From Planctomycetota bacterium (GTDB lineage Bacteria > Planctomycetota > J058), in NCBI GenBank assembly GCA_050186825.1, contig JBFWYD010000031.1:1-43998 (forward strand): DNA of 43,998 nt, written 5' to 3'. The notes under the pieces are model-generated. The model was not told where the DNA came from. It saw only the letters and a list, made by a program, of their open reading frames with translations, and ran no database searches. This document shows, piece after piece, positions 43 through 11,433 of this stretch. The translations under genes and the position numbers were made by a program. Within the stretch, counting starts at the first letter, position 1; the number at the start of each line of letters is the position of its first letter.

Positions 43-425
43 ACGTACGCGAACAGCTACGTGGCCGCCAGGGGCCGAAGGCCCGGCGAGTGGGCTGCGA
101 ATCTCTCCGAGCGTGGGCGCCGACAGTCGCCCTCGGATGCCGCCGCGTGTCTCGTCCCCGGCGGAGGGGACCAAGGTCCCGCGAGTGACCGACGAGCGGC
201 TGCGCAAGCTCGAGCGAACCAGTGGCGCAGGGGACCCGGAAGCAGAGGGTGCCCTGCTCCTGCAGCGACTGCGCGCGGGAGCGCGGCTGGACTGGCGCGC
301 CTGCGGCGCTGCGTGATCCCGTGGGCGCTCGGCCATGAGCACGACCGCCCAACGCGGAGGCCCCGCCCAGGCCTCTGATCCTTCACACGAGGGCTGCTAG
401 AGTCCCGCCCCCGGGGGGACCCTTC

Positions 426-2243
426 GTGAGCAACCTCACCGCGTCGATCCTGGCCAACGACCTCGAGGGGCTCACGGCCGCGCTCTCGGGGGCGAAGCCC
501 CACGAGCTGGGGAGCGCGTTCCAGATGGCCGCGCAGCGCGAGGGGACCTGTCCGCTCCTGCGCGCCCTGCTCGAGGCGGGCGTCGAGGAGCGGCAGGTCG
601 GCTACGGGCTGAGCCAGGCCTGCGAGCGCGGGCTGCAGGAGAACGTGGCCGCGATCCTCGCGGCGCGGCCCGGGATCCGGGTGGGCAACCGCAAGGGCGA
701 CGGGCCGCTCTACCAGGCCGCCCGGCGCGGCGACCTCGCGCTGGTGGAGCTGCTGCTCGGCGCGGGCGACGCGGAGCCCCTCGGCCACCTCGGCGAGGCC
801 GACCACGAGCAGGCGCCCGATGGTTGGCACCCGCTCCTGGCGGCGATCGAGGCCGGTGCGCCCGAGGTGGTCACGCGCCTGCTCGCGGCCGGCTGCGACC
901 CGAACTTCGCCACCCGCCGCCAGCGGAGCCCGCTCGACCTGGCCCGCGCGCTCGGGAACGAGGCGGTCGTGCGCGCGCTCGAGCGGGGCGGCGCGCGCCC
1001 GCTCGACCCGGCCTGGCTCGACCTCCAGGGCGCGGCCCGGAGCGGGGCCGTGGCGCGGGTGCAGGAGCTGATCCCCGCCGCGAGCGAGGAGGAGCTCGCC
1101 GAGGCGCTCTGGAGCGCGCTCCTCGGCGACCACGAGCCCGTCGTGGAAGCCCTGATCGCGCGCGGCCTGCCGCCGGAGCGGCTGACGCACGCCTTCTCCC
1201 AGGCGGTGCGGCTCTCGCGCTTCGCCGGGGCCGAGGCGCTGCTCGCCGCCGGGGCCGACCTGAACGGCCCCAACGAGCAGGGCAAGACCGCCCTCTACTG
1301 GGCGGCCGGCTTCGACGCCGCCGACGGGGTCCGCTGGCTGGCCGCGCGCGGCGCCGACCTCGAGGCCGTGGACCGCGACGGGGAGACCGCCCTGCATCGC
1401 GCCTGCGACCGTGGCTGCCGCCAGGCGGTCGAGGCCCTCCTGGCCGCCGGCGCCAACGTCAAGGCCAAGGACGCGCGCGGCAAGACGCCGGCCGCCTTCG
1501 CCAAGGACTACCCGGAGCTCAAGGCCCTGCTCAAGGCGGCGGGCGCGGCCCCGGCCTCGCCCGCCGCGGCCAAGCGCACGCTCAAGAAGAAGCTCGCCGG
1601 CCTGGCCCGCGAGGCGCATCCGCTCAAGACCTCGAGCAAGCCCGGTCCGCCCCGCGGCTCGCGCGTGGGCGGCCTCCCCTTCCTGCCCGCGGACGACCCC
1701 TGGCCGGTGTGCGCGACCTGCGCGCGCCCGCTGACCTTCTTCCTCCAGCTCGACCTCGACGACCTCCCGCTCCAGTTCGACGCGACCGGGCTGCTGCAGC
1801 TCTTCCGCTGCAGCGGCTGCGCTCCCGCCGCGCCTGCGGCCAAGGAGCAGCTCCTGCGCCGGCTGAGCGCGAGCGAGGGGGAGCGGCGCGCGGCGCCCGA
1901 AGGGACCAAGGTCCTCCCGCTCCGCACGATCACCGGCGCCAAGAAGCCCAAGCCCGACCTCCCCCGCCGCCCCGAGGACCACGACCAGCCTGTCCTCGGC
2001 CTCGAGCTCGACGTGCACGCCGAGCTCTGCCTCGCAGGCGACAAGCTCGGCGGCTGGCCGCACTGGATCCAGGACGCCTCCTGGCCCCTGGCCCCGCTGA
2101 GCCAGGCCCGCTGCGACCGCCTCCTCCTCCAGCTCGACACCGGCGGCGCGCTCGGCGACGAGCTGGGCGACGGCGGGATCGGCTTCCTGCTCTCCGCCGC
2201 GGCGGCGCCGGAGGAGGTCGTGTTCGTGTGGCAGTGCCTGTGA
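426..2243 (+). CDS. ankyrin-repeat protein with C-terminal DUF1963 (YwqG-like) domain
   Basis: 605-aa ORF with GTG start. The N-terminal ~370 aa carry repeated ankyrin signatures (G.TPL..A...G....V..LL..GAD.N). The C-terminal ~230 aa carry DUF1963-like motifs (GGLPFLP..DPWP.C..C..PLTFFLQLDLDDLP ... LLQLFRC..C ... KLGGWPHWIQD ... GDGGIGFLL). The protein-like composition contrasts with a junk antisense ORF. Confidence 0.8.
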   Translation: MSNLTASILANDLEGLTAALSGAKPHELGSAFQMAAQREGTCPLLRALLEAGVEERQVGYGLSQACERGLQENVAAILAARPGIRVGNRKGDGPLYQAARRGDLALVELLLGAGDAEPLGHLGEADHEQAPDGWHPLLAAIEAGAPEVVTRLLAAGCDPNFATRRQRSPLDLARALGNEAVVRALERGGARPLDPAWLDLQGAARSGAVARVQELIPAASEEELAEALWSALLGDHEPVVEALIARGLPPERLTHAFSQAVRLSRFAGAEALLAAGADLNGPNEQGKTALYWAAGFDAADGVRWLAARGADLEAVDRDGETALHRACDRGCRQAVEALLAAGANVKAKDARGKTPAAFAKDYPELKALLKAAGAAPASPAAAKRTLKKKLAGLAREAHPLKTSSKPGPPRGSRVGGLPFLPADDPWPVCATCARPLTFFLQLDLDDLPLQFDATGLLQLFRCSGCAPAAPAAKEQLLRRLSASEGERRAAPEGTKVLPLRTITGAKKPKPDLPRRPEDHDQPVLGLELDVHAELCLAGDKLGGWPHWIQDASWPLAPLSQARCDRLLLQLDTGGALGDELGDGGIGFLLSAAAAPEEVVFVWQCL

Positions 2244-4791: not shown

Positions 4792-5120
4792 GCGCCTCTG
4801 CCTACCCGTCGAAGTTCCAGTCGGCAGGCAGCTCTCGAGCTCGACCGCTGCGTAGGTCCCCGAGCGCAGCTGAGCCAGGGCGGCGCGGAAACGCCCCCAC
4901 CCGTCAGCCGCGACCCAGATCGTCGTCTCTCCGTTGAAGCCGCCCAACCGCGCCTCGGCGCGCAGGCGCAGGTCGCCAGCGCTCGGGGTCCCGTCGGGAC
5001 CAGCTTCGAGCGGCTCCAGCACGAGCTCGGCGTCGGGCCCAGATGGATGCAGGGGAGGTGGAAGCGAGCGGGTCACCGCCTGAGCCTAGCGTGAGCCACG
5101 GCGGTCGAGCTCGCAGCCCC

Positions 5121-5156
5121 TCCAAACGACAACGGCCGGCCCCGAGGGACCGGCCG
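5121..5156 (-). terminator. intrinsic terminator-like hairpin (cggccggtccc tc ggggccggccg, about 11-bp stem) followed on the minus strand by TTGTCGTTTGG
   Basis: Lies ~35 nt downstream (minus strand) of the serine recombinase stop codon. It is a GC-rich stem with a short loop followed by a T-rich tract, a rare feature in this GC-rich genome. Confidence 0.45.
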
Positions 5157-5188
5157 CTGCCGCGAGATCGAACGAAACCCAGAGTTCC

Positions 5189-6241
5189 TTAGCCGACCGA
5201 GGACGCCGCGAGGCTCTGGTGGCGCGAGCGGGTGTCGCGCGCCTTGGCCGCGGGCTGCTCGACCGGGGCCGGCTTGGCCGGGGCCGGCTTGGCGGGCGGC
5301 TCCGTGGCCGCCGGCTGCTGGTCCTCGGCCTCGCCGGTCGCGGCCTCGAGCTCGAGGTCCTCGAGCTCGTCCTCGTCGTCGTCGCCCTTCTTCCCGCCCT
5401 CGCGGCTGCGCTTGTTGTTCGCCTTGATCAGCTGCTGGGCCTTGTTGAAGGTGATCGGGGCCACGATCGGCTCGTGGCGCCCCTTGACGTGGATGTCCCC
5501 GAAGTGGACGCGGCCGATGTAGGTGTCGTTCTTGAGGATCCAGGAGACCCCCGCCCGCGACCACTGCTTGCTCCGCCGCGTCCTGAGGCCCTGCTCGTCG
5601 AGGAGCTTGATCAGCCGCTTCATGCTGCGCAGGCGCAGGTACTCGCGAAAGATCAGCTTGACGACCTCGGCCTCCACCTCGTCCGGCACCAACATCACGC
5701 CCTCGCTCGAGCGCTTGTCGTAGTCGCGCCGGTAGCCGTAGGGAGCGGGGCCGCTCTGGTGCTTGCCCTGGCGGGCCCCCTCCTCGCGACCCTTCAGCAG
5801 GCGCTGCGCGATCTCGCGCTTGCGCTCCACCTCGTCGCTCTTGCGCGCCGCGACCTTCTTCGGCTGGCGCGCCTTGTAGTCCTCGACGATCGCCCGGAGC
5901 TGGCGGGCCGTGTCGTCGTTGGCGACGAGCACCCGCTTCCCGGCGTTCCGCAGCTCCTCGACGGGGTCGAAGGTGAGCGTGCTGCACAGCCCGCGGAGGC
6001 GGCAGCCGGAGACGATCAAGACCGCCTCCCAGTCGCTCTCCTCCATGTCGTCCAGGATGTTGACGAGCCCTGCGCGGGTGTCCTGGGTGGGGGTCAACCC
6101 GTGGTCGGTGTGGACCTTCTCCAGCGCGAGCCCGGTGTGGGAGGCGAAGGCCTCCAGTCTTCGAGTCTGCTCCTCGAGCGAGGGGAAGCCCCCTTCCTCC
6201 TGCTCGAGGTAGCTGACTCGGGCGTAGGCGACGACCTTCAC
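5189..6241 (-). CDS. serine recombinase. It has a resolvase/invertase-type catalytic domain plus a large-serine-recombinase 'recombinase' domain, lacks the zinc-ribbon/coiled-coil tail, and ends in a Lys/Pro/Ala/Asp-Glu-rich C-terminus
   Basis: The N-terminus MKVVAYARVSYLEQ matches the YxRVS(T)xxQ catalytic serine motif, and the downstream R..L.......D.L.V...RL.R block is present (TRAGLVNILDDMEESDWEAVLIVSGCRLRG). The recombinase-domain signatures APYGYRRD and ILKNDTYIGR follow. The protein is 350 aa with an acidic/KPAPA tail. The GTG start lies 7 nt after the MamK-like gene's stop. Confidence 0.8.
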   Translation of the reverse strand: MKVVAYARVSYLEQEEGGFPSLEEQTRRLEAFASHTGLALEKVHTDHGLTPTQDTRAGLVNILDDMEESDWEAVLIVSGCRLRGLCSTLTFDPVEELRNAGKRVLVANDDTARQLRAIVEDYKARQPKKVAARKSDEVERKREIAQRLLKGREEGARQGKHQSGPAPYGYRRDYDKRSSEGVMLVPDEVEAEVVKLIFREYLRLRSMKRLIKLLDEQGLRTRRSKQWSRAGVSWILKNDTYIGRVHFGDIHVKGRHEPIVAPITFNKAQQLIKANNKRSREGGKKGDDDEDELEDLELEAATGEAEDQQPAATEPPAKPAPAKPAPVEQPAAKARDTRSRHQSLAASSVG

Positions 6242-6248
6242 CGGTCGG

Positions 6249-7337
6249 TTAGCGCAGCTGCTCCCAGGCCTCGACCGGCATGTCGTAGGCGATCTTGAGC
6301 GCCCCGTTCGCGCCGGCGTAGACGGGCTCCTGCACCGGACGGACCTTGCCGCCGCCGTAGCCCTGGAGCGCCTCCTCGAGCGCGCGGTCGAGGCCGTGGA
6401 TGCGGCTGCCGCCGCCGGCCAGGATCACGTTGTTGCGCAGGCGGTCCTGGAACTCGGGGTCGAAGGTCGAGATCAGGCGGTCGACGGCCTCGACGATCGG
6501 CTCGACGATCCGGCTGCAGCCCTTGCGGACCTCGGCGGTCACGTCGAAGGCCTTGGGGCGGCCGCGCACGGGGAAGGTGACCATCACGGGCTCGGCGGCC
6601 TCGGTCACGAAGGCGTGCTTCTCCTTGATCTCGCGCACCATGTTGATGTTGAAGCTGGCGTCGGGGCAGCGGCCCTTGAACAGCTCGAACAGCTGGTGGT
6701 CGATGAAGTCGCCGGCCTGGGTCAGCGTGACCTGGTCGTCCTCGTCGGGCATCGAGCCCTTCATCCGGCAGAGGTCGGTGGTCCCGGCGCCGATGTCGAT
6801 CACCAGGCAGTCGTGGAGCCGGTCCATCCCGTAGGCGACCGAGAAGGGCTCGCTGCAGATCACCACCGAGTCGAGCACCTCACGGGCGGCCTCGATGATC
6901 GACTGCTTGTTGTGGATCGAGGCCTGCGCGGGGCAGCCGATCACGCCGTAGACGAGCTGGCCGGGCTTGGGGCGGGCCAGGCTGACCGCGTGCTGGATCA
7001 GGGCGCGCGCGGCCTCGAGGTTGGCGCTCACGTCCTCGCTCGGGGCGCCGGTCGAGTCGGAGTGCTTGATCACGCCCTTCTCGAGCGGGCGGTAGAGGTC
7101 GAGGGCCAGGCGGTGCGCCATGGCGTCGTCCCCGAACAGCACGTCGCGCTGGAGCAGCTTGCGCGAGACCACGTCGCGCGGGTAGCCGACGATGCTGCTG
7201 ACCGTCTCCCGCACGCCGTTGCTGGCCGAGATCGAGGTCCGCGAGGTGCCGAGGTCGATGCCGACGTAGAGGATCGAGTCGCTCTCGCCCTTCCGGTAGT
7301 TCAGGCGGTCCTGCGCCGCGCTCTTCTGCTTCTCCAT
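6249..7337 (-). CDS. actin-fold ATPase, MamK-like (MreB/ParM/MamK superfamily)
   Basis: Actin-fold signature motifs appear in order: phosphate-1 VGIDLGTSRTSI, connect-1 GVIGCPAQAS, phosphate-2 LVIDIGAGTTDLC, and adenosine/connect-2 ILAGGGSRIHGLDRALEEAL. Local blocks (IVGYPRD, CSEPFSVAYGMDRL, DEDDQVTLTQAGDFIDHQL) resemble MamK more than MreB or ParM, as far as I can recall. The start is ATG 7337-7335 (M27 of the tracker ORF) with a GGGGGAAG RBS 6 nt upstream. Confidence 0.85.
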   Translation of the reverse strand: MEKQKSAAQDRLNYRKGESDSILYVGIDLGTSRTSISASNGVRETVSSIVGYPRDVVSRKLLQRDVLFGDDAMAHRLALDLYRPLEKGVIKHSDSTGAPSEDVSANLEAARALIQHAVSLARPKPGQLVYGVIGCPAQASIHNKQSIIEAAREVLDSVVICSEPFSVAYGMDRLHDCLVIDIGAGTTDLCRMKGSMPDEDDQVTLTQAGDFIDHQLFELFKGRCPDASFNINMVREIKEKHAFVTEAAEPVMVTFPVRGRPKAFDVTAEVRKGCSRIVEPIVEAVDRLISTFDPEFQDRLRNNVILAGGGSRIHGLDRALEEALQGYGGGKVRPVQEPVYAGANGALKIAYDMPVEAWEQLR

Positions 7338-7392
7338 GATGTCTTCCCCCTGGGTGTTCAGCTCTGTTGGGTTCGTCGTCGTCTCGTGCGGC

Positions 7393-8166
7393 CTACGCCC
7401 GACGGCGGAGGCCAAGGTTCTGGTCGATCAGTCCGTTGAGCAGGCCACCCCCCCGGCGGCGCGCTCCCGAATTCGTTCCCAGCCCGCTGGCGGCGGGCGG
7501 CGGCGGCGGCGGCTCAGGGACCGCCGCTGGCGCGGGCGGCGGCTCCGCCCCGCGCGGCTCGGCCGCGTGGGTCCGCCCCGCCGCGGTCGACTGGCCCGGG
7601 TTGCGGAGCTCCACGTTGGCCCGCACCAGGCCCGCCAGGAGGCCCCCGCCGCCGCGCGGCATGGGCCGCGTCGTGTGTCCCGCGCCCTGGCTGGGCGCGC
7701 CCAGGCCCGCGGGCCGGCTCGGCGCCGCAGCCAGCGGCGTCGCGGCGACCGGCGCAGCGGCGACCGGCCCGTGCCCGAGCGGCGCGGCGACCGGCCCGTG
7801 CCCGAGCGGCGCGGCGACCGGCCCGTGCCCGAGCGGCCCGGCGACCGGCGCCGCGGCGGCGCGCTCGAGCCGCGCGGCGGCGCGCTCGAGCCTGGCCGCG
7901 ACCGCGGCCAGGCCCTCGCGCTCGCTGGCGCGCTCGGCCAGGCGCGCCTGCGCCTCGGCCAGCCGCTGGGCCAGCGCGTCGCGCTCGGCGCGCAGCCGGT
8001 CCAGCTCCGCCTGCGTCGGGCCCCCGCGGAGCTCGGCGCGCAGGCGCGCCACCTCCTCGCGCAGCCGGTTCCGCTCCTCCGAGAGGCGGGCGATGATCTC
8101 CACCGCGGCCCGCGGCAAGTCGCGGGTGCGGGAGAGGATCGCGGGGCTGCGCTCGAGGGTGGCCAC
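7393..8166 (-). CDS. coiled-coil plus Ala/Pro-rich repeat protein (candidate filament-associated adaptor)
   Basis: A GTG start follows a GGAG that overlaps the upstream stop (TGAGGAGCGAACACGTG). The N-terminal ~110 aa form a heptad-like coiled coil (ERNRLREEVARLRAELR...LAEAQARLAERASEREGLAAVAARLERAAARLERAAA). Then come three tandem GHGPVAAPL repeats, an Ala/Pro linker, and two copies of a GGGLL.GL...N..LR motif. Only the 3' ~775 nt of the 509-aa tracker ORF look protein-like. Confidence 0.5.
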   Translation of the reverse strand: MATLERSPAILSRTRDLPRAAVEIIARLSEERNRLREEVARLRAELRGGPTQAELDRLRAERDALAQRLAEAQARLAERASEREGLAAVAARLERAAARLERAAAAPVAGPLGHGPVAAPLGHGPVAAPLGHGPVAAAPVAATPLAAAPSRPAGLGAPSQGAGHTTRPMPRGGGGLLAGLVRANVELRNPGQSTAAGRTHAAEPRGAEPPPAPAAVPEPPPPPPAASGLGTNSGARRRGGGLLNGLIDQNLGLRRRA

Positions 8167-8177
8167 GTGTTCGCTCC

Positions 8178-9221
8178 TCAGCGGCCCTTGTGGCCGGGGC
8201 CGAAGCCGAAGCCGAAGGCGCCGAACTCCTGCTTGGCCCGGCGGACGGTGCTCCGCCGCGACTCGTCGGGCTCGGCGGCCTTGGCCGGCGCGGGCGCGGC
8301 GGGCTCTTCGGCCACGACCTCTGGCTCGGGTTCGGCCTTGGGCTCGAGCTCGGCCACGCGCTCGGCCAGCTGCGCCCGCTCCAGGGTCAGCTCGGCCAGC
8401 TGCTTGGCGTCGGCCTCGCGGGCCTGGTGCAGCTCGGCCGCCTCGCGGCGGGCCGCCTCGGCCTGGGCGCGCAGCGCGGTCAGGTCCTCGGCCAGGCTCG
8501 CGCAGCGCTTGAGGTAGGTGTCGCGCTCCTCGCGGAACTGGTCGCGCTCGCGGCGCATCCCGTCGCGCTCCTGGCGGAGCTGCTCGCGCTCGCTCGCCAT
8601 GGCGTCGCGCTCGTCCACGGTCCGGTCGCGCTCGTCTCGGAACTGCTCCAGGTCGTGGCGCAGGGCCTCGACCTCGCTCTCGAGCCGGTCGCGCTCGCGC
8701 TCGAGCTTGTCCCGCTCGGACTGGATCGAGCCCAGGTTCCCCTCGAGGTCCGCGTTGCGCCCCAGCTCCTCGTCCAGCCGCTCGCGCGCGCTGGTCTGGA
8801 GCCGCTTGAGGTTCTTCTCCAGCGAGCCGATCTGCGCGCGCAGCCGGGCCCGCTCGGCCAGCAGCTCGCGGATGTCCTGCTCCTGGAGCTTCTCGCCCGC
8901 CTCGCGGCCGAGGGCCTGGCACACCTCGTCGACCGCCGCCTGCAGCCGGCCGCGCTCGGCCTCGACCAGGCCCTTGGCGTGCTCGAGCTCCTTCTTCTCC
9001 TTGCCGAGCTTGGCGTTCTCCTGGAGCAGCCGCTCCACCCGCCGCTGGGCCGCGTCCTCGTCGCTGCTCGCGCCCTCCTGCTTGAGCTTCCCCAGGAGCT
9101 CGATCAGCTGGCTGCGCTCGATCACGCGCACGTTGTCGACCTTGGCCTTGCGCAGCTCGCGCACGTTCAGCGTGCGGGTGGCGGAGCGCAGCGCGCCGGA
9201 CAGCTCGTCGTCGAAGCTCAT
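8178..9221 (-). CDS. long coiled-coil protein with acidic Pro/Glu-rich C-terminal region and a GFGFGPG terminal motif
   Basis: 347 aa from ATG 9221-9219 with a strong RBS GGAGGAGGAAGG. About 250 aa of continuous heptad-rich E/R/L/Q/D coiled coil (ERDKLERERDRLESEVEALRHDLEQFRDERDR...) are followed by EPKAEPEPEVVAEEPAAPAPAKAAEPDES and RRAKQEFGAFGFGFGPGHKGR. The upstream 139 codons of the tracker ORF are Arg/Ala/Pro junk. Confidence 0.6.
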   Translation of the reverse strand: MSFDDELSGALRSATRTLNVRELRKAKVDNVRVIERSQLIELLGKLKQEGASSDEDAAQRRVERLLQENAKLGKEKKELEHAKGLVEAERGRLQAAVDEVCQALGREAGEKLQEQDIRELLAERARLRAQIGSLEKNLKRLQTSARERLDEELGRNADLEGNLGSIQSERDKLERERDRLESEVEALRHDLEQFRDERDRTVDERDAMASEREQLRQERDGMRRERDQFREERDTYLKRCASLAEDLTALRAQAEAARREAAELHQAREADAKQLAELTLERAQLAERVAELEPKAEPEPEVVAEEPAAPAPAKAAEPDESRRSTVRRAKQEFGAFGFGFGPGHKGR

Positions 9222-9283
9222 GGCCTTCCTCCTCCAGGTCCGCCCGGTGACCTCCCGGTCCCGAGCGCTCGCTGTGTTCCTCT

Positions 9284-9335
9284 CGGAAAATTCATGAGTC
9301 GGCTTGTGGGGGATTTCGAAAAAATCACGAGGCCG
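9284..9335. promoter_or_regulatory. AT-rich patch with the near-palindrome GATTTCGAAAAAATC, in the divergent promoter region between the coiled-coil/MamK-like operon (minus) and the ABC transporter operon (plus)
   Basis: This is the only markedly AT-rich 50 nt in a ~390-bp divergent intergenic region (ggaaaattcatgagtcggcttgtgggggatttcgaaaaaatcacgagg). The dyad symmetry suggests an operator or -10/-35 context. No convincing TTGACA/TATAAT pair could be assigned. Confidence 0.25.
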
Positions 9336-9615
9336 CTCCCAGAGCGGGTCCGCGCGCATCGCCGGGGCCTCGGGGCCGTCGCTTCGCCGCACAGGTCCTC
9401 CCCGCCAGGGCCCATCGCTCCGCCCCCGCGCGGGAGTCGATTGTTCAGGCGCATCCGACAGGGATGTGTGCAGTGTTCGGCCGACTGCACTGAGGCGACC
9501 GCCCATCGCCCTGGGCGCCGCTCGGCGCGCGGACCCACCCATCGCGGCGGGCGATGGGCGAAGGGCGCGGGTCGCCGCCGCCTGTGGGGACGACCCCAGG
9601 GAATAAGATCCCCGC

Positions 9616-11433
9616 GTGATCGAGGTCCAGGCCCTCACCCAGCGCTACGGGAGCTACGAGGCGGTCCGCGAGCTGAGCTTCGCCCTGGGCGCGGGGGAGG
9701 TGGTCGGCTTCCTCGGCCCCAACGGGGCGGGCAAGTCGACGACCCTCAAGGTGATCGCGAGCTTCCTGGCCCCGAGCGCCGGCCGGGTCAGCGTCGGGGG
9801 CTGCGACGTGGCCCGCGACCCCCTCGGGGTCCGGGCCCGGCTGGGCTACCTGCCCGAGCACTGCCCCCTCTACGAGGAGATGCTCGCGCGCGAGCTGCTC
9901 GACTTCGCCGCGCGCGTCCGCGGCCTGAGCCGCGCCGAGCGCGCCGCGGCCCGCGCGCGCGTGGTCGAGCGCTGCCGGCTGGAGGAGGTGATCGAGCGCC
10001 CGGTCAGCGACCTGAGCAAGGGCTACCGCCAGCGCCTCGGGCTGGCGACCGCCCTCCTGCACGACCCCCGGATCCTGGTCCTCGACGAGCCGACCAGCGG
10101 GCTGGACCCGAACCAGGTGCTCGAGATGCGTGCGCTCGTGCGCGAGCTGGGCCAGGAGCGCACGGTCCTGTTCAGCAGCCACGTGCTCTCCGAGGTCGAG
10201 GCCACCTGCGAGCGCGTGGTCGTGATCCACCGCGGCCGCCTGGTCGCGGACGACGCGGTGGCGAGCCTGGCGCGGCGGATCACCGGAGGGGCGCTCGACG
10301 TCCGTGGGGCGGAGGCCGAGGCGGTCGCAGGCGTCCCAGGCGTGGCCGAGGCCGTGGCGCTCGCCGACGGGCGGGTGCGCGCGCGGCCGCGGGCCGGCGT
10401 CGAGGACCTCGCGGCGCGGCTGTTCCGCTGGGCGGCCGGGAGCGGCCGGGTGCTCGTGGAGATAGCGCCGCAGCGGGTCACGCTCGAGGACGTGTTCGCG
10501 GCGCTGACCGCGGATTCGAAGGCGGTCGCTCCGCAGGCTACGGGATCAGGAGCCGCGGAGGCGGCTCTCCCTAGCGCGGCGCAGAGCCGCAGAGCCGCAG
10601 AGGGGCCCTCGCAGGAGCCGGCGCGCGACTCGGAGACGCCGGATTCGCAGGCGGCGGCTACCGAAGCGGGGGGGACAGGAGCTGCGAAGGCGTTGGATTT
10701 CAGCGCAGAGATCGCAGAGAGCGCGGAGATCGGTGGGTGTGAGCGAAGGCGCGGCTCCGATCCGTCGGGTGAAGGAGAGAAAACGAGGGAGAGAGACTCG
10801 GATTCGGATTCGGCTTCGGACTCCCCCCCGGCCTCGGATGCGACCCCTCGCTCACACCCCGCGATCTCCGCGATCTCTGCGATCTCTGCGCTGAATATCA
10901 ACGCTGTCGCACCCCCTCACGACCCCGAGCTCGCAGCCCGCTCCGGCTGTGAGTCTCCGGGCTCGGTCTCGGACTCGGACTCGGTCTCGGACTCGGACTC
11001 GGACTCGGACTCGGTCTCGGACTCGGTCTCGGTCTCGGACTCGGACTCGGCCTCGGCCTCGGCCTCGGCCTCGGACTCGGCCTCGGCCTCGGCCTCGGAC
11101 TCGGACTCGGTCTCCGCCTCGGACTCGGACTCGGACTCGGACTCGGACTCGGACTCGGACTCGGTCTCGGACTCGGACTCGGACTCGGACTCGGACTCGG
11201 ACTCGGACTCGGACTCGGACTCGCCCTCGGACTCGCCCTCGGACTCGGACTCGCGCCCTCGCTCACACCCACCGATCTCCGCGGACTCTGCGATCTCTGC
11301 GCTGAATAACAACGCTGTCGCACACCCTCGCGATCCCGACCTCGCAACTCGCCCCCGCTCAGAGTCTCCGGCCTCGGCCTCGGCCTCGGCCTCGGACTCG
11401 GACTCGGCTTCGGACCCGGAGCGCCCCACGTGA
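9616..11433 (+). CDS. ABC transporter ATP-binding protein (GldA-like; ABC-2/gliding-motility-associated type) carrying a ~300-aa low-complexity C-terminal extension encoded by a repeat element
   Basis: Walker [11 protein letters not shown]-loop, ABC signature LSKGYRQRL, Walker [13 protein letters not shown] and H-loop SSHVL are all present. The ATPase fold ends near LEDVFAALT (about nt 10530). The ORF then continues without a stop through an inverted-repeat element and (GACTCG)n arrays that encode (SD)n, up to TGA 11431-11433, which overlaps the GTG of the next gene. Confidence 0.8.
10540..11430. repeat. composite dispersed repeat (copy 1): unit A (~10540-10750), unit B (~10845-10975), (GACTCG)n-type hexanucleotide microsatellite arrays (~10958-11260 and ~11378-11425), and a second partial unit B (~11255-11385)
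   Basis: Near-identical sequence (>90% by eye) recurs at 17735-18400. Unit A is gcagaggggccctc...gattcgcaggcggcggct(a/g)ccgaagcggggg...gttggatttcagcgcagagatcgcagagagcgcggagatcg. Unit B is cgc(t/c)cacaccc(a/g)ccgatctccgcg.actctgcgatctctgcgctgaata(t/a)caacgctgtcgcac.ccctc.cgatccc and occurs 3 times in the window. The tcggactcggac tracts are directly visible. Confidence 0.9.
10699..10895. repeat. ~50-bp imperfect inverted repeats flanking a ~95-nt loop (potential large hairpin of the MITE/RPE type)
   Basis: The left arm (ttcagcgcagagatcgcagagagcgcggagatcggtgggtgtgagcgaagg) and right arm (cctcgctcacaccccgcgatctccgcgatctctgcgatctctgcgctgaa) are reverse complements with about 3 mismatches. The same architecture recurs at ~17897-18127. 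Confidence 0.8.

Follow-up and report, generated by a model that had tools for sequence, protein, structure and literature searches.

Why does a gene for a serine-recombinase-like protein directly follow a gene for a MamK-like actin, in an operon that also encodes two coiled-coil proteins? The four genes, here called g1 to g4, lie on the minus strand at positions 5189–9221 of contig JBFWYD010000031.1 (assembly GCA_050186825.1), a 43,998-nt stretch of DNA from a Planctomycetota bacterium that was analysed as a whole (hereafter the window). Planctomycetota do without FtsZ (PMC11032199), and for their division, DNA segregation, and shape change a MamK-type actin with dedicated adaptors is a concrete candidate machine. 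MamK-type actins are 60–88% conserved across hundreds of planctomycete genomes, and in this lineage the candidate machine also has a co-evolving, predicted DNA-binding partner, g4. On the evidence set out below, we put at roughly 0.55 the probability that the module is a lineage-specific chromosomal cytoskeletal operon with g4 as a domesticated, non-catalytic DNA-binding partner. An earlier note, written from the sequence of the window alone, had wavered between a partition-resolution unit of an integrated plasmid or integrative and conjugative element (ICE) and "a new cytoskeletal system"; the latter phrase was essentially right.

The actin gene and the gene behind it

In the list of open reading frames (ORFs), g1 (8178–9221, ATG start) encodes 347 aa, g2 (7393–8166, GTG start) 257 aa, g3 (6249–7337, ATG start) 362 aa, and g4 (5189–6241, GTG start) 350 aa, the first two being putative adaptor halves, the third a MamK-family actin-like ATPase, and the fourth a truncated homologue of large serine recombinases. 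All four genes are co-directional, with intergenic gaps of 11 nt (g1/g2), 55 nt (g2/g3), and 7 nt (g3/g4). The GC content at third codon positions (GC3) is 0.95–0.99 in these frames (0.99 in g1 and 0.95 in g2), above that of the overlapping ORFs on the opposite strand, and the NCBI gene calls for the identical public contig give the same four protein lengths, in agreement with the tight minus-strand array described in the earlier note. The host is a planctomycete and not, as that note supposed, a myxobacterium: the related genome loci are all from Planctomycetota metagenome-assembled genomes (MAGs; 80/80), and a Planctomycetota MAG has database entries for an actin and a recombinase-like protein identical to these.

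The g3 product matches the NCBIfam MamK profile NF040964 with 431 bits (cutoff 400) over profile positions 1–330 of 335, is about 40% identical to MamK, and has PDB matches to MamK (5LJW/5JYG, E = 1e-83), BeeR (8R2N, E = 2e-41), and MreB (E = 1e-8). Residues D28, G30, T31, D181, G183, G185, T186, and G308–G310 are invariant across homologues, as are the phosphate-1, phosphate-2, and adenosine motifs, and E163, the Glu of the segment SEPF, is nearly invariant and aligns with MamK E143. The actin motifs that the earlier note spells out are present and invariant across homologues, and the local blocks that it likened to MamK do align with MamK in the PDB alignment; its placement of g3 nearer to MamK than to MreB or ParM is borne out by hidden Markov model (HMM) and PDB comparisons, which give MamK and not MreB, ParM, or FtsA. 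Profile and motif evidence accordingly places g3 as a true MamK-family actin, whose motif set for ATPase activity and polymerisation is intact.

Two other family assignments of g3 do not hold. Against the MreB profiles it scores 57.8 bits for NF010539 (cutoff 293) and 44 bits for TIGR00904 (cutoff 366), and its PDB matches to MreB do not go beyond E = 1e-8. Against the BeeR profile it scores 226.6 bits (cutoff 530), and the PDB match to BeeR has E = 2e-41 versus 1e-83 for MamK. Among the Pfam and NCBIfam matches of g3 at E ≤ 0.1, no ParM/StbA family occurs and the best family is MamK.

Relatives of g3 are found in at least 577 species-level genomes. The neighbour analysis, which covered 80 loci, divides these loci into two groups, a split that is supported by a neighbour-joining tree. 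In the recombinase-linked group, the actins are at least 61% identical to g3 and form one clade, a g4 homologue comes directly after the actin gene, and g1- and g2-like genes lie upstream. Specifically, g3 is directly followed by g4 in the window, at 14 genome loci, at loci L084 and L085, and at 11 metagenome loci, with an actin–g4 gap of 1–21 nt, and g1- and g2-like genes are present upstream of g3 wherever the contig extends far enough. The module is thereby represented at about 28 loci, with actin identities of 61–88% and in differing chromosomal neighbourhoods. At L084 the g4 homologue, 47% identical to that of the window, comes right after the MamK-like gene, and at both L084 and L085 the two genes upstream of the MamK-like gene carry the g1 and g2 end motifs described below. 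The co-conservation of the module at about 28 loci upholds the four-gene operon of the earlier note as one unit, to which the recombinase-like gene belongs, and not to an adjacent mobile element.

The flanking genes vary by locus (SecY and ribosomal proteins, a peptidase, an ABC transporter), and the contigs that carry the module, the longest of 369 kb, place it among housekeeping genes and so in chromosomal contexts. In the window, the neighbours of the operon by Pfam are an ABC transporter, kinases, peptidases, and a metallophosphoesterase; the overall GC content of about 75% is uniform along the window; and no tRNA genes, flanking direct or att-like repeats, or mobile-element genes were found around this copy within 44 kb. 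The varied flanks and the lack of mobile-element signs therefore point to a chromosomal, vertically inherited unit and not to an ICE or plasmid remnant.

The second group, to which most of the at least 577 species-level relatives of g3 belong, is the widespread one. Its actins are 58–65% identical to g3; a single adaptor of about 260 aa is encoded upstream, often along with a BY-kinase/ParA-like P-loop ATPase, and there is no recombinase-like gene. Both operons occur in one MAG in several cases, among them JAWKSZ (L011 and L028) and JAGQRJ (L009 and L032). The paralogous operon spans 6435–9095 at L003 and is found at about 60 other loci (e.g. L019, L022, L036, L053, and L079); its adaptors carry the end motifs GIASIYRxVQGL and KKxLMxxIFxANLxLQK, and its combination of a BY-kinase/ParA-like protein, an adaptor, and a MamK-like protein is apparently undescribed in the literature searched. 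Two loci without g4, L016 and L020, are the neighbours of L085 in the tree, where the recombinase-linked clade has its base. L016 (4037–8080, BPJM01 KatS3mg102) has a g1-like gene (FGFG tail), a g2-like gene (ALLERLASANRELRR), a MamK-like gene, and then a 187-aa ORF, and L020 has no g4 match; g4 was either gained after the L016/L020 split or lost there.

The g4 product has Pfam matches to Resolvase (PF00239, 36.4 bits, cutoff 23.3) and Recombinase (PF07508, 67.4 bits, cutoff 21.1). Its AlphaFold2 (AF2) model, with a predicted local distance difference test score (pLDDT) of 86.6 that is mostly above 90 in residues 1–280, comprises a catalytic-domain fold (residues 1–125, positions 5867–6241, minus strand; also by Foldseek and Pfam), an αE helix (residues 132–157), a recombinase/DNA-binding domain (residues 160–280, positions 5402–5764, minus strand; by Pfam and Foldseek), and a disordered acidic/Pro tail (residues 281–350). 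In Foldseek comparisons the model matches Bxb1, SprA, phiC31, and the recombinase domain of A118/LI integrase. In particular, the N-terminal domain matches those of Bxb1, SprA, phiC31, and TP901-1, and the recombinase domain superimposes on 4KIS with an rmsd of 1.8–2.0 Å over 130 residues. The model thus presents g4 as a large-serine-recombinase derivative that has kept the catalytic fold, αE, and the recombinase domain and has lost the zinc-ribbon/coiled-coil domain. This last domain, which large serine recombinases need for att-site recognition and synapsis, is PF13408 with its embedded coiled coil; it is absent from g4 and from 82/82 members of the g4 family (E ≤ 1e-41, 193–390 aa). The next-best matches outside the family are ordinary large serine recombinases of 500–600 aa with PF13408, at E = 1e-18 or worse, and this sharp gap (1e-41 versus 1e-18) parts the g4 family from true large serine recombinases.

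To number the catalytic residues, the family was aligned by MAFFT to γδ resolvase, whose sequence served for numbering alone. The g4 of the window keeps Y6, R8, S10, D36, R45, and R68, and in this alignment has Cys for D67 and Gly for R71, with the motif CRLRG instead of DRLxR; R71 is either missing or displaced by one, and HMMER, by way of a one-residue gap, aligns the Arg one position off with the R71 equivalent of SprA. Across the 82 family members, the nucleophile column holds Ser in 31, Thr in 29, and another residue in 9, and is absent in 13; the strict set Y6/R8/S10/D36/R68/R71 is kept in 2/82, or in 16/82 when Arg at position 70 is counted too; and 8/82 have no N-terminal domain whatever. 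Each residue of the strict set is required for the activity of Tn3 resolvase, which is abolished by its mutation (PMC2794168). The closest homologue of g4 (74% identity) has Thr at the nucleophile position, and the L085 orthologue, at 210 aa, consists of the recombinase domain only and is still right behind the actin gene.

Identities of g3 and of the g4 recombinase domain, compared locus by locus, run side by side (88/87, 86/86, 84/82, 80/78, 74/72, and 71/71%), while over the same loci the identity of the g4 N-terminal domain drops from 80% to 34%. The DNA-binding domain of g4 diverges as slowly as the actin, and the catalytic residues are unconserved among orthologues. The invariant columns of the family alignment all fall in residues 147–278, i.e. 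in the C-terminus of αE and the recombinase domain, and because conservation is confined to this region, the conserved function of g4 is probably DNA binding by the recombinase domain, as predicted from sequence, and not recombination. With the zinc-ribbon domain absent and the catalytic set unconserved, g4 is probably not a member of the functional large serine recombinases. The earlier note had called g4 a serine recombinase, which holds for fold and domains (Pfam, AF2) and is probably wrong for activity; the built-in resolution function that it suggested is unlikely, given the missing zinc-ribbon/coiled-coil domain, the unconserved catalytic residues, and the recombinase-domain-only orthologues.

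Divergent relatives of g4, at 39–45% identity, are found at L086 (6001–6819), L096 (3881–4846), L102 (3974–4867), L100 (664–1563), and L103; those at the first four loci are short and have degenerate or Thr-type "nucleophile" motifs. At L086, L096, and L102 the relative follows a sigma70-like/helix-turn-helix (HTH) gene, with phage-like surroundings or a local GC content of about 50%; the phage-like genes around the L086 relative include DNA methyltransferases and many small ORFs. The g4 family probably came from a mobile element, of which the L086-type relatives probably represent the source, and its members may basically be DNA-binding regulators. At L010 (1248–2209), a g4 orthologue is split in two ORFs (HMM positions 1–131 and 125–293) by either a frameshift or an assembly error, and the public annotation retains just the recombinase-domain half (P0170, 242 aa).

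Adaptor genes and flanking DNA

The g1 protein is laid out as an N-terminal region, a long coiled coil, an acidic/Pro linker, and an end with GFGFGFG and a basic motif (residues 333–347, positions 8181–8225, minus strand). The family alignment shows conservation of the N-terminal region (residues 1–115), with the invariant segment EKLGxxKxxLEHxKGLxExER, and of the end motif, the FGFGFG tail being kept in 11 orthologues. In the AF2 model, residues 54–108 and 114–289 are helical, the N-terminus is helical at low confidence, the tail is disordered, and no recognisable cargo-binding fold is seen. The g1 family is small, with 22 representatives in an exhaustive search of 1.84 billion proteins; a word-indexed search with the g1 N-terminus gave one match. 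The comparison that bears on its origin is that of g1 residues 4–115 with the N-terminal part of the paralogous-operon adaptor, which hhalign aligns with a probability of 97% (E = 9e-11).

Besides a short coiled coil and a (GPVAAPLGH)x3 repeat, the g2 protein contains the motif GGLLxGL(V/I)xxN(V/L)xLR twice (residues 174–188, positions 7603–7647, and residues 240–254, positions 7405–7449, both minus strand), with a poly-Pro linker in between. The tandem Ala-Pro repeats that had been noted in g2 are present as a 27-nt unit in 3.4 copies with 98% match (7757–7849, minus strand). One or two terminal copies of the motif, in the form GG-Φ-L-x-x-L-Φ-x-x-N-Φ-x-L-R, are present in every g2-like protein examined, and g2 orthologues were detected at 10 or more loci. 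The possibility that g2 is a spurious ORF was rejected on the basis of its GC3, its orthologues, and the conservation of its motif. The paralogous-operon adaptor ends in K-[KR]-x-[LM]-[ML]-x-x-I-F-x-A-N-x-x-L-[QRK] in 61/63 cases, with Phe and Asn invariant.

Since the N-terminus of g1 is homologous to that of the one adaptor encoded by the paralogous operon, and that adaptor's motif matches the one in g2, the two proteins read as the split halves of one ancestral adaptor. It is to the adaptor of this planctomycetal MamK-like operon that g1 and g2 are homologous, and the resemblance to MamJ-like adaptors drawn in the earlier note is an analogy only. The amphipathic helix with its invariant Asn, shared across the paralogous systems, looks like a protein-docking peptide, with membrane targeting as the main alternative role. 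WH2 helices and the C-terminal helix of ParR bind the hydrophobic cleft of actin and of ParM, respectively. The C-terminal motifs of the adaptors are well-defined candidate peptides for filament binding, and they may show that bacterial actins are regulated by peptide-in-cleft interactions, as are eukaryotic actin and ParM.

The translation signals mentioned in the earlier note can all be read in the sequence: the Shine-Dalgarno sequence GGAGGAGGAAGG of g1 (9224–9235, minus strand), the g1 stop that overlaps the GAGGAG preceding the g2 GTG, and the g4 GTG that is 7 nt past the g3 TAA and that no Shine-Dalgarno sequence serves at a usable distance. Shared k-mers reveal an AT-rich element some 100 nt ahead of the start of g1, GATTTTTTCGAAATC (9312–9326, minus strand), which probably belongs to the operon promoter. 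The 9-mer GATTTTTTC is found unaltered at −78 to −128 of g1 in the window, L005, and L084, and has close variants in L001, L007, L008, and L085; its conserved form is GATTTTTTC(C/G)AAA, 80–130 nt upstream of g1 and with adjacent promoter-like blocks, and the rest of the intergenic sequence is mostly unconserved. The AT-rich element and the promoter-like blocks mark out a conserved transcription unit that starts with g1. A sigma-70 promoter scan gave no match.

Further upstream, at 9411–9558, is a cluster of four GCGATGGG 8-mers, three direct and one inverted, which is a candidate operator or centromere-like site. The 8-mer occurs six times in the 44-kb window, four of these inside 150 bp upstream of g1, and forms an inverted pair, CCCATCGC-N5-GCGATGGG, at 9538–9558 within the cluster. 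Perfect 12-nt inverted repeats at 9500–9511/9549–9560 and 9346–9357/9525–9536 overlap the cluster; by a rough estimate, two such repeats in the 394-bp gap between g1 and the ABC transporter gene are above chance for 480 bp. The cluster is specific to the window, being absent upstream of g1 at orthologous loci, and most orthologous loci have no shared or analogous repeat array. L084 has its own upstream 8-mer cluster (1390–1695), with ACCCGGGG five times, in both orientations, inside the roughly 300 bp that precede g1; that locus contains seven in all. Should such clusters be binding sites, they would vary in sequence from genome to genome despite the nearly invariant recognition region of g4.

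Downstream of g4, a GC-rich terminator-like hairpin (5128–5161, core 5134–5155, minus strand) folds at −44.9 kcal/mol (z = −4.4), and 0/200 shuffled sequences fold as well; this strong fold agrees with the terminator named in the earlier note, and a simple terminator scan left it unflagged because its U-tract is weak. An Rfam scan of 4900–9800 found no RNA family, and a PADLOC scan gave coiled-coil noise alone and no defence match. Two other genes in the window have unusual features. The divergent ABC-transporter ATPase at 9616–11433 (plus strand) has a C-terminal Ser-Asp low-complexity extension of about 300 aa, which contains the hexamer CGGACT 49 times at 10958–11253 and a duplicated 215-nt block (10795–11009 and 11206–11420) and reaches the start of an ABC-2 permease/auxiliary gene. 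At 339–2243 (plus strand), an ankyrin-repeat protein is fused to DUF1963, an unusual bacterial architecture that is unrelated to the operon.

Possible roles of the operon

In the mechanism that we propose, g3 would polymerise into dynamic filaments, onto which the C-terminal motifs of g1 and g2 would dock the coiled-coil adaptors in the fashion of the ParR tail on ParM or of WH2 on actin; alternatively, these motifs would dock onto the membrane. The g4 protein would be coupled in its translation to the actin and so made in step with it. It would no longer recombine and would act as a sequence-specific DNA-binding partner that, in a ParR-like manner, holds a locus or the whole nucleoid on the filament system, autoregulates the operon, or does both. 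Coupling of DNA to filaments is inferred, and even if the overall picture holds, g4 is more likely than not to do without such a physical coupling. The fullest form of the proposal, with a catalytically dead recombinase remnant as a ParR-like DNA adaptor and with MamK-family filaments and coiled-coil proteins positioning or segregating chromosomal DNA, is doubtful.

Several observations weigh against a cytoskeletal operon with a dedicated, non-catalytic DNA-binding partner. The loci L016 and L020 do without g4, which therefore appears accessory to the core filament system, and the divergent relatives of g4 (L086, L096, L100, L102, and L103) have no actin nearby and, at L086, L096, and L102, adjoin sigma70-like/HTH genes in settings that resemble phages or mobile elements, which favours a regulator role. 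The tail of g4 is unconserved: it is acidic in the window's protein, rich in Lys and similar to histone H1 in close orthologues, and absent elsewhere. K-mer sharing among the orthologous upstream and downstream regions gave no common site besides the promoter-like AT-rich element. Contact of g4 with the filament or the adaptors is a predicted role, and the resemblance that the motif in g2 bears to WH2 and ParR C-terminal helices is putative. Lastly, the g4 of the window keeps 5/6 of the strict catalytic residues and the displaced Arg, so that residual catalysis is possible in this genome.

Of the other explanations, the one to be taken most seriously, unlikely as it is, holds that the operon serves a cytoskeleton for shape, motility, or division and that g4 is a mere transcription factor, an autoregulator that does not physically join DNA to the filament. 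Some serine resolvases, Tn3 TnpR among them, double as repressors, the divergent relatives of g4 have sigma70-like/HTH genes and no actin gene for neighbours, sister loci retain adaptors and actin and lack g4, and a conserved promoter-like sequence and local inverted repeats lie upstream of the operon. A role in shape would also fit saltatorellin, which forms filaments and is the proposed driver of shape-shifting (bioRxiv 10.1101/817700). Set against this, the recombinase domain equals the actin in conservation, an unusually high degree for a local autoregulator; g4 is downstream of the actin gene at 1–21 nt, in the parM-parR order; the Lys-rich tails suggest bulk DNA association; and a conserved operator was not found across the loci. 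It is improbable that g4 is still an active resolvase or invertase here, resolving replicon dimers or flipping nearby DNA. The retained Y6, R8, S10, D36, R45, and R68, together with the Arg adjoining position 71, and the perfect 12-nt inverted repeats upstream would suit such an enzyme, but the MAFFT alignment has Cys in place of D67 and Gly in place of R71, the closest homologue has Thr in the nucleophile column, the strict set is kept in 2/82 members (16/82 with Arg at position 70), the zinc-ribbon/coiled-coil domain is absent, orthologues with the recombinase domain only hold the same gene position, and the promoter-like element is outside the segments bounded by the inverted repeats.

It is very improbable that the four genes form the partition and resolution unit of an integrated plasmid or ICE, as proposed in part by the earlier note, or of a prophage, even though PHROGs assigns g4 to an "integrase" family and, weakly, g3 to a phage "partition protein" and though the divergent L086 relative is among phage-like genes: the module occupies unrelated chromosomal neighbourhoods at about 28 loci with actin and g4 co-diverging, GC content is uniform, PADLOC gives no matches, and tRNA genes, flanking repeats, and other mobile-element genes were not found within 44 kb. 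Least credible of all, and rejected as mam genes were not found, is a genuine magnetosome MamK in the remnant of a magnetosome gene cluster. Magnetotactic members are known in Planctomycetota (PMC10653835) and g3 is above the NCBIfam MamK cutoff; against this, the identity to MamK is only about 40%, neither MamJ nor MamY is related to the partner genes, and Pfam finds no mam or mad domains across the 44-kb window, as the earlier note had remarked of the surroundings, and no mam or mad genes are among the Pfam-annotated genes of the three orthologous and paralogous loci L001–L003.

Relation to known systems

The actin g3 comes from a known family, MamK, and is close to the saltatorellin type. 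The literature searched (MamK/actin-like proteins in Planctomycetes, saltatorellin, and actin-like proteins with serine recombinases) does not describe the combination of such an actin with g4 and the adaptors and includes no paper that pairs an actin-like filament gene with a serine-recombinase-type partner. To our knowledge, it would be unusual for a serine recombinase to have been converted to DNA binding without catalysis.

With MamK (PDB 5LJW, 5JYG, and 5LJV), g3 shares the family, about 40% identity, the nucleotide-binding motifs, and the catalytic Glu (E143 in MamK). It differs in its setting, a non-magnetotactic planctomycete lineage without a magnetosome gene cluster, and in its partners, which are two coiled-coil adaptors and a recombinase-derived protein and not MamJ or MamY. 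Saltatorellin is the MamK-like actin of the planctomycete-related Saltatorellus ferox, where it is found alongside other actins, and its filaments form in E. coli and M. gryphiswaldense (bioRxiv 10.1101/817700). Like g3, it is from a non-magnetotactic member of the Planctomycetota radiation, and its C-terminus ...YWEQLK, deduced from a published primer, resembles the ...AWEQLR of g3; the loci examined contain no match to the 3′ end given by this primer. The saltatorellin preprint leaves partner genes unmentioned, with "recombinase" and "coiled" at 0 occurrences each (bioRxiv 10.1101/817700). BeeR, the three-stranded tubular actin of Verrucomicrobiota (PDB 8R2N; PMC11929497), is likewise a MamK-related actin from a bacterium of the PVC superphylum without magnetosomes, but g3 reaches 227 bits against a BeeR cutoff of 530. 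In Desulfovibrio magneticus RS-1, the coiled-coil proteins Mad20/23/25/26 organise magnetosomes with MamK/Mad28 (PMC12748827); there too a MamK-type actin works with several coiled-coil proteins, in a network that serves magnetosomes and has no DNA-binding partner, and a sequence relation of its proteins to g1 or g2 was not found.

Large serine recombinases (Bxb1, phiC31, A118/LI integrase, and SPbeta SprA) have the catalytic fold, αE, and recombinase domain in common with g4; unlike them, the g4 family is 193–390 aa long versus about 500–600 aa, lacks the zinc-ribbon/coiled-coil domain, att sites, and a mobile-element context, and does not conserve the catalytic residues. ParMRC resembles the module in having an actin-like gene directly followed by the gene of a DNA-binding protein, with repeated DNA upstream, and in the proposed logic whereby the filament captures a DNA-bound adaptor through a short peptide. 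It differs in that the module has a MamK-family actin, a 350-aa g4 derived from large serine recombinases in place of a small ribbon-helix-helix (RHH) ParR, two extra coiled-coil proteins, a chromosomal and vertically inherited location, and unconserved upstream repeats; having the wrong actin family, the wrong adaptor type, and a chromosomal location, the module does not fit as a ParMRC system. The paralogous planctomycetal operon is like it in its actin, 58–65% identical to g3, in an adaptor N-terminus homologous to that of g1, and in the adaptor motif K-K-x-L-M-x-x-I-F-x-A-N-L-x-L-Q, which matches that of g2, and is unlike it in having one adaptor and not two, no recombinase-like gene, often an upstream P-loop ATPase, and a far wider distribution.

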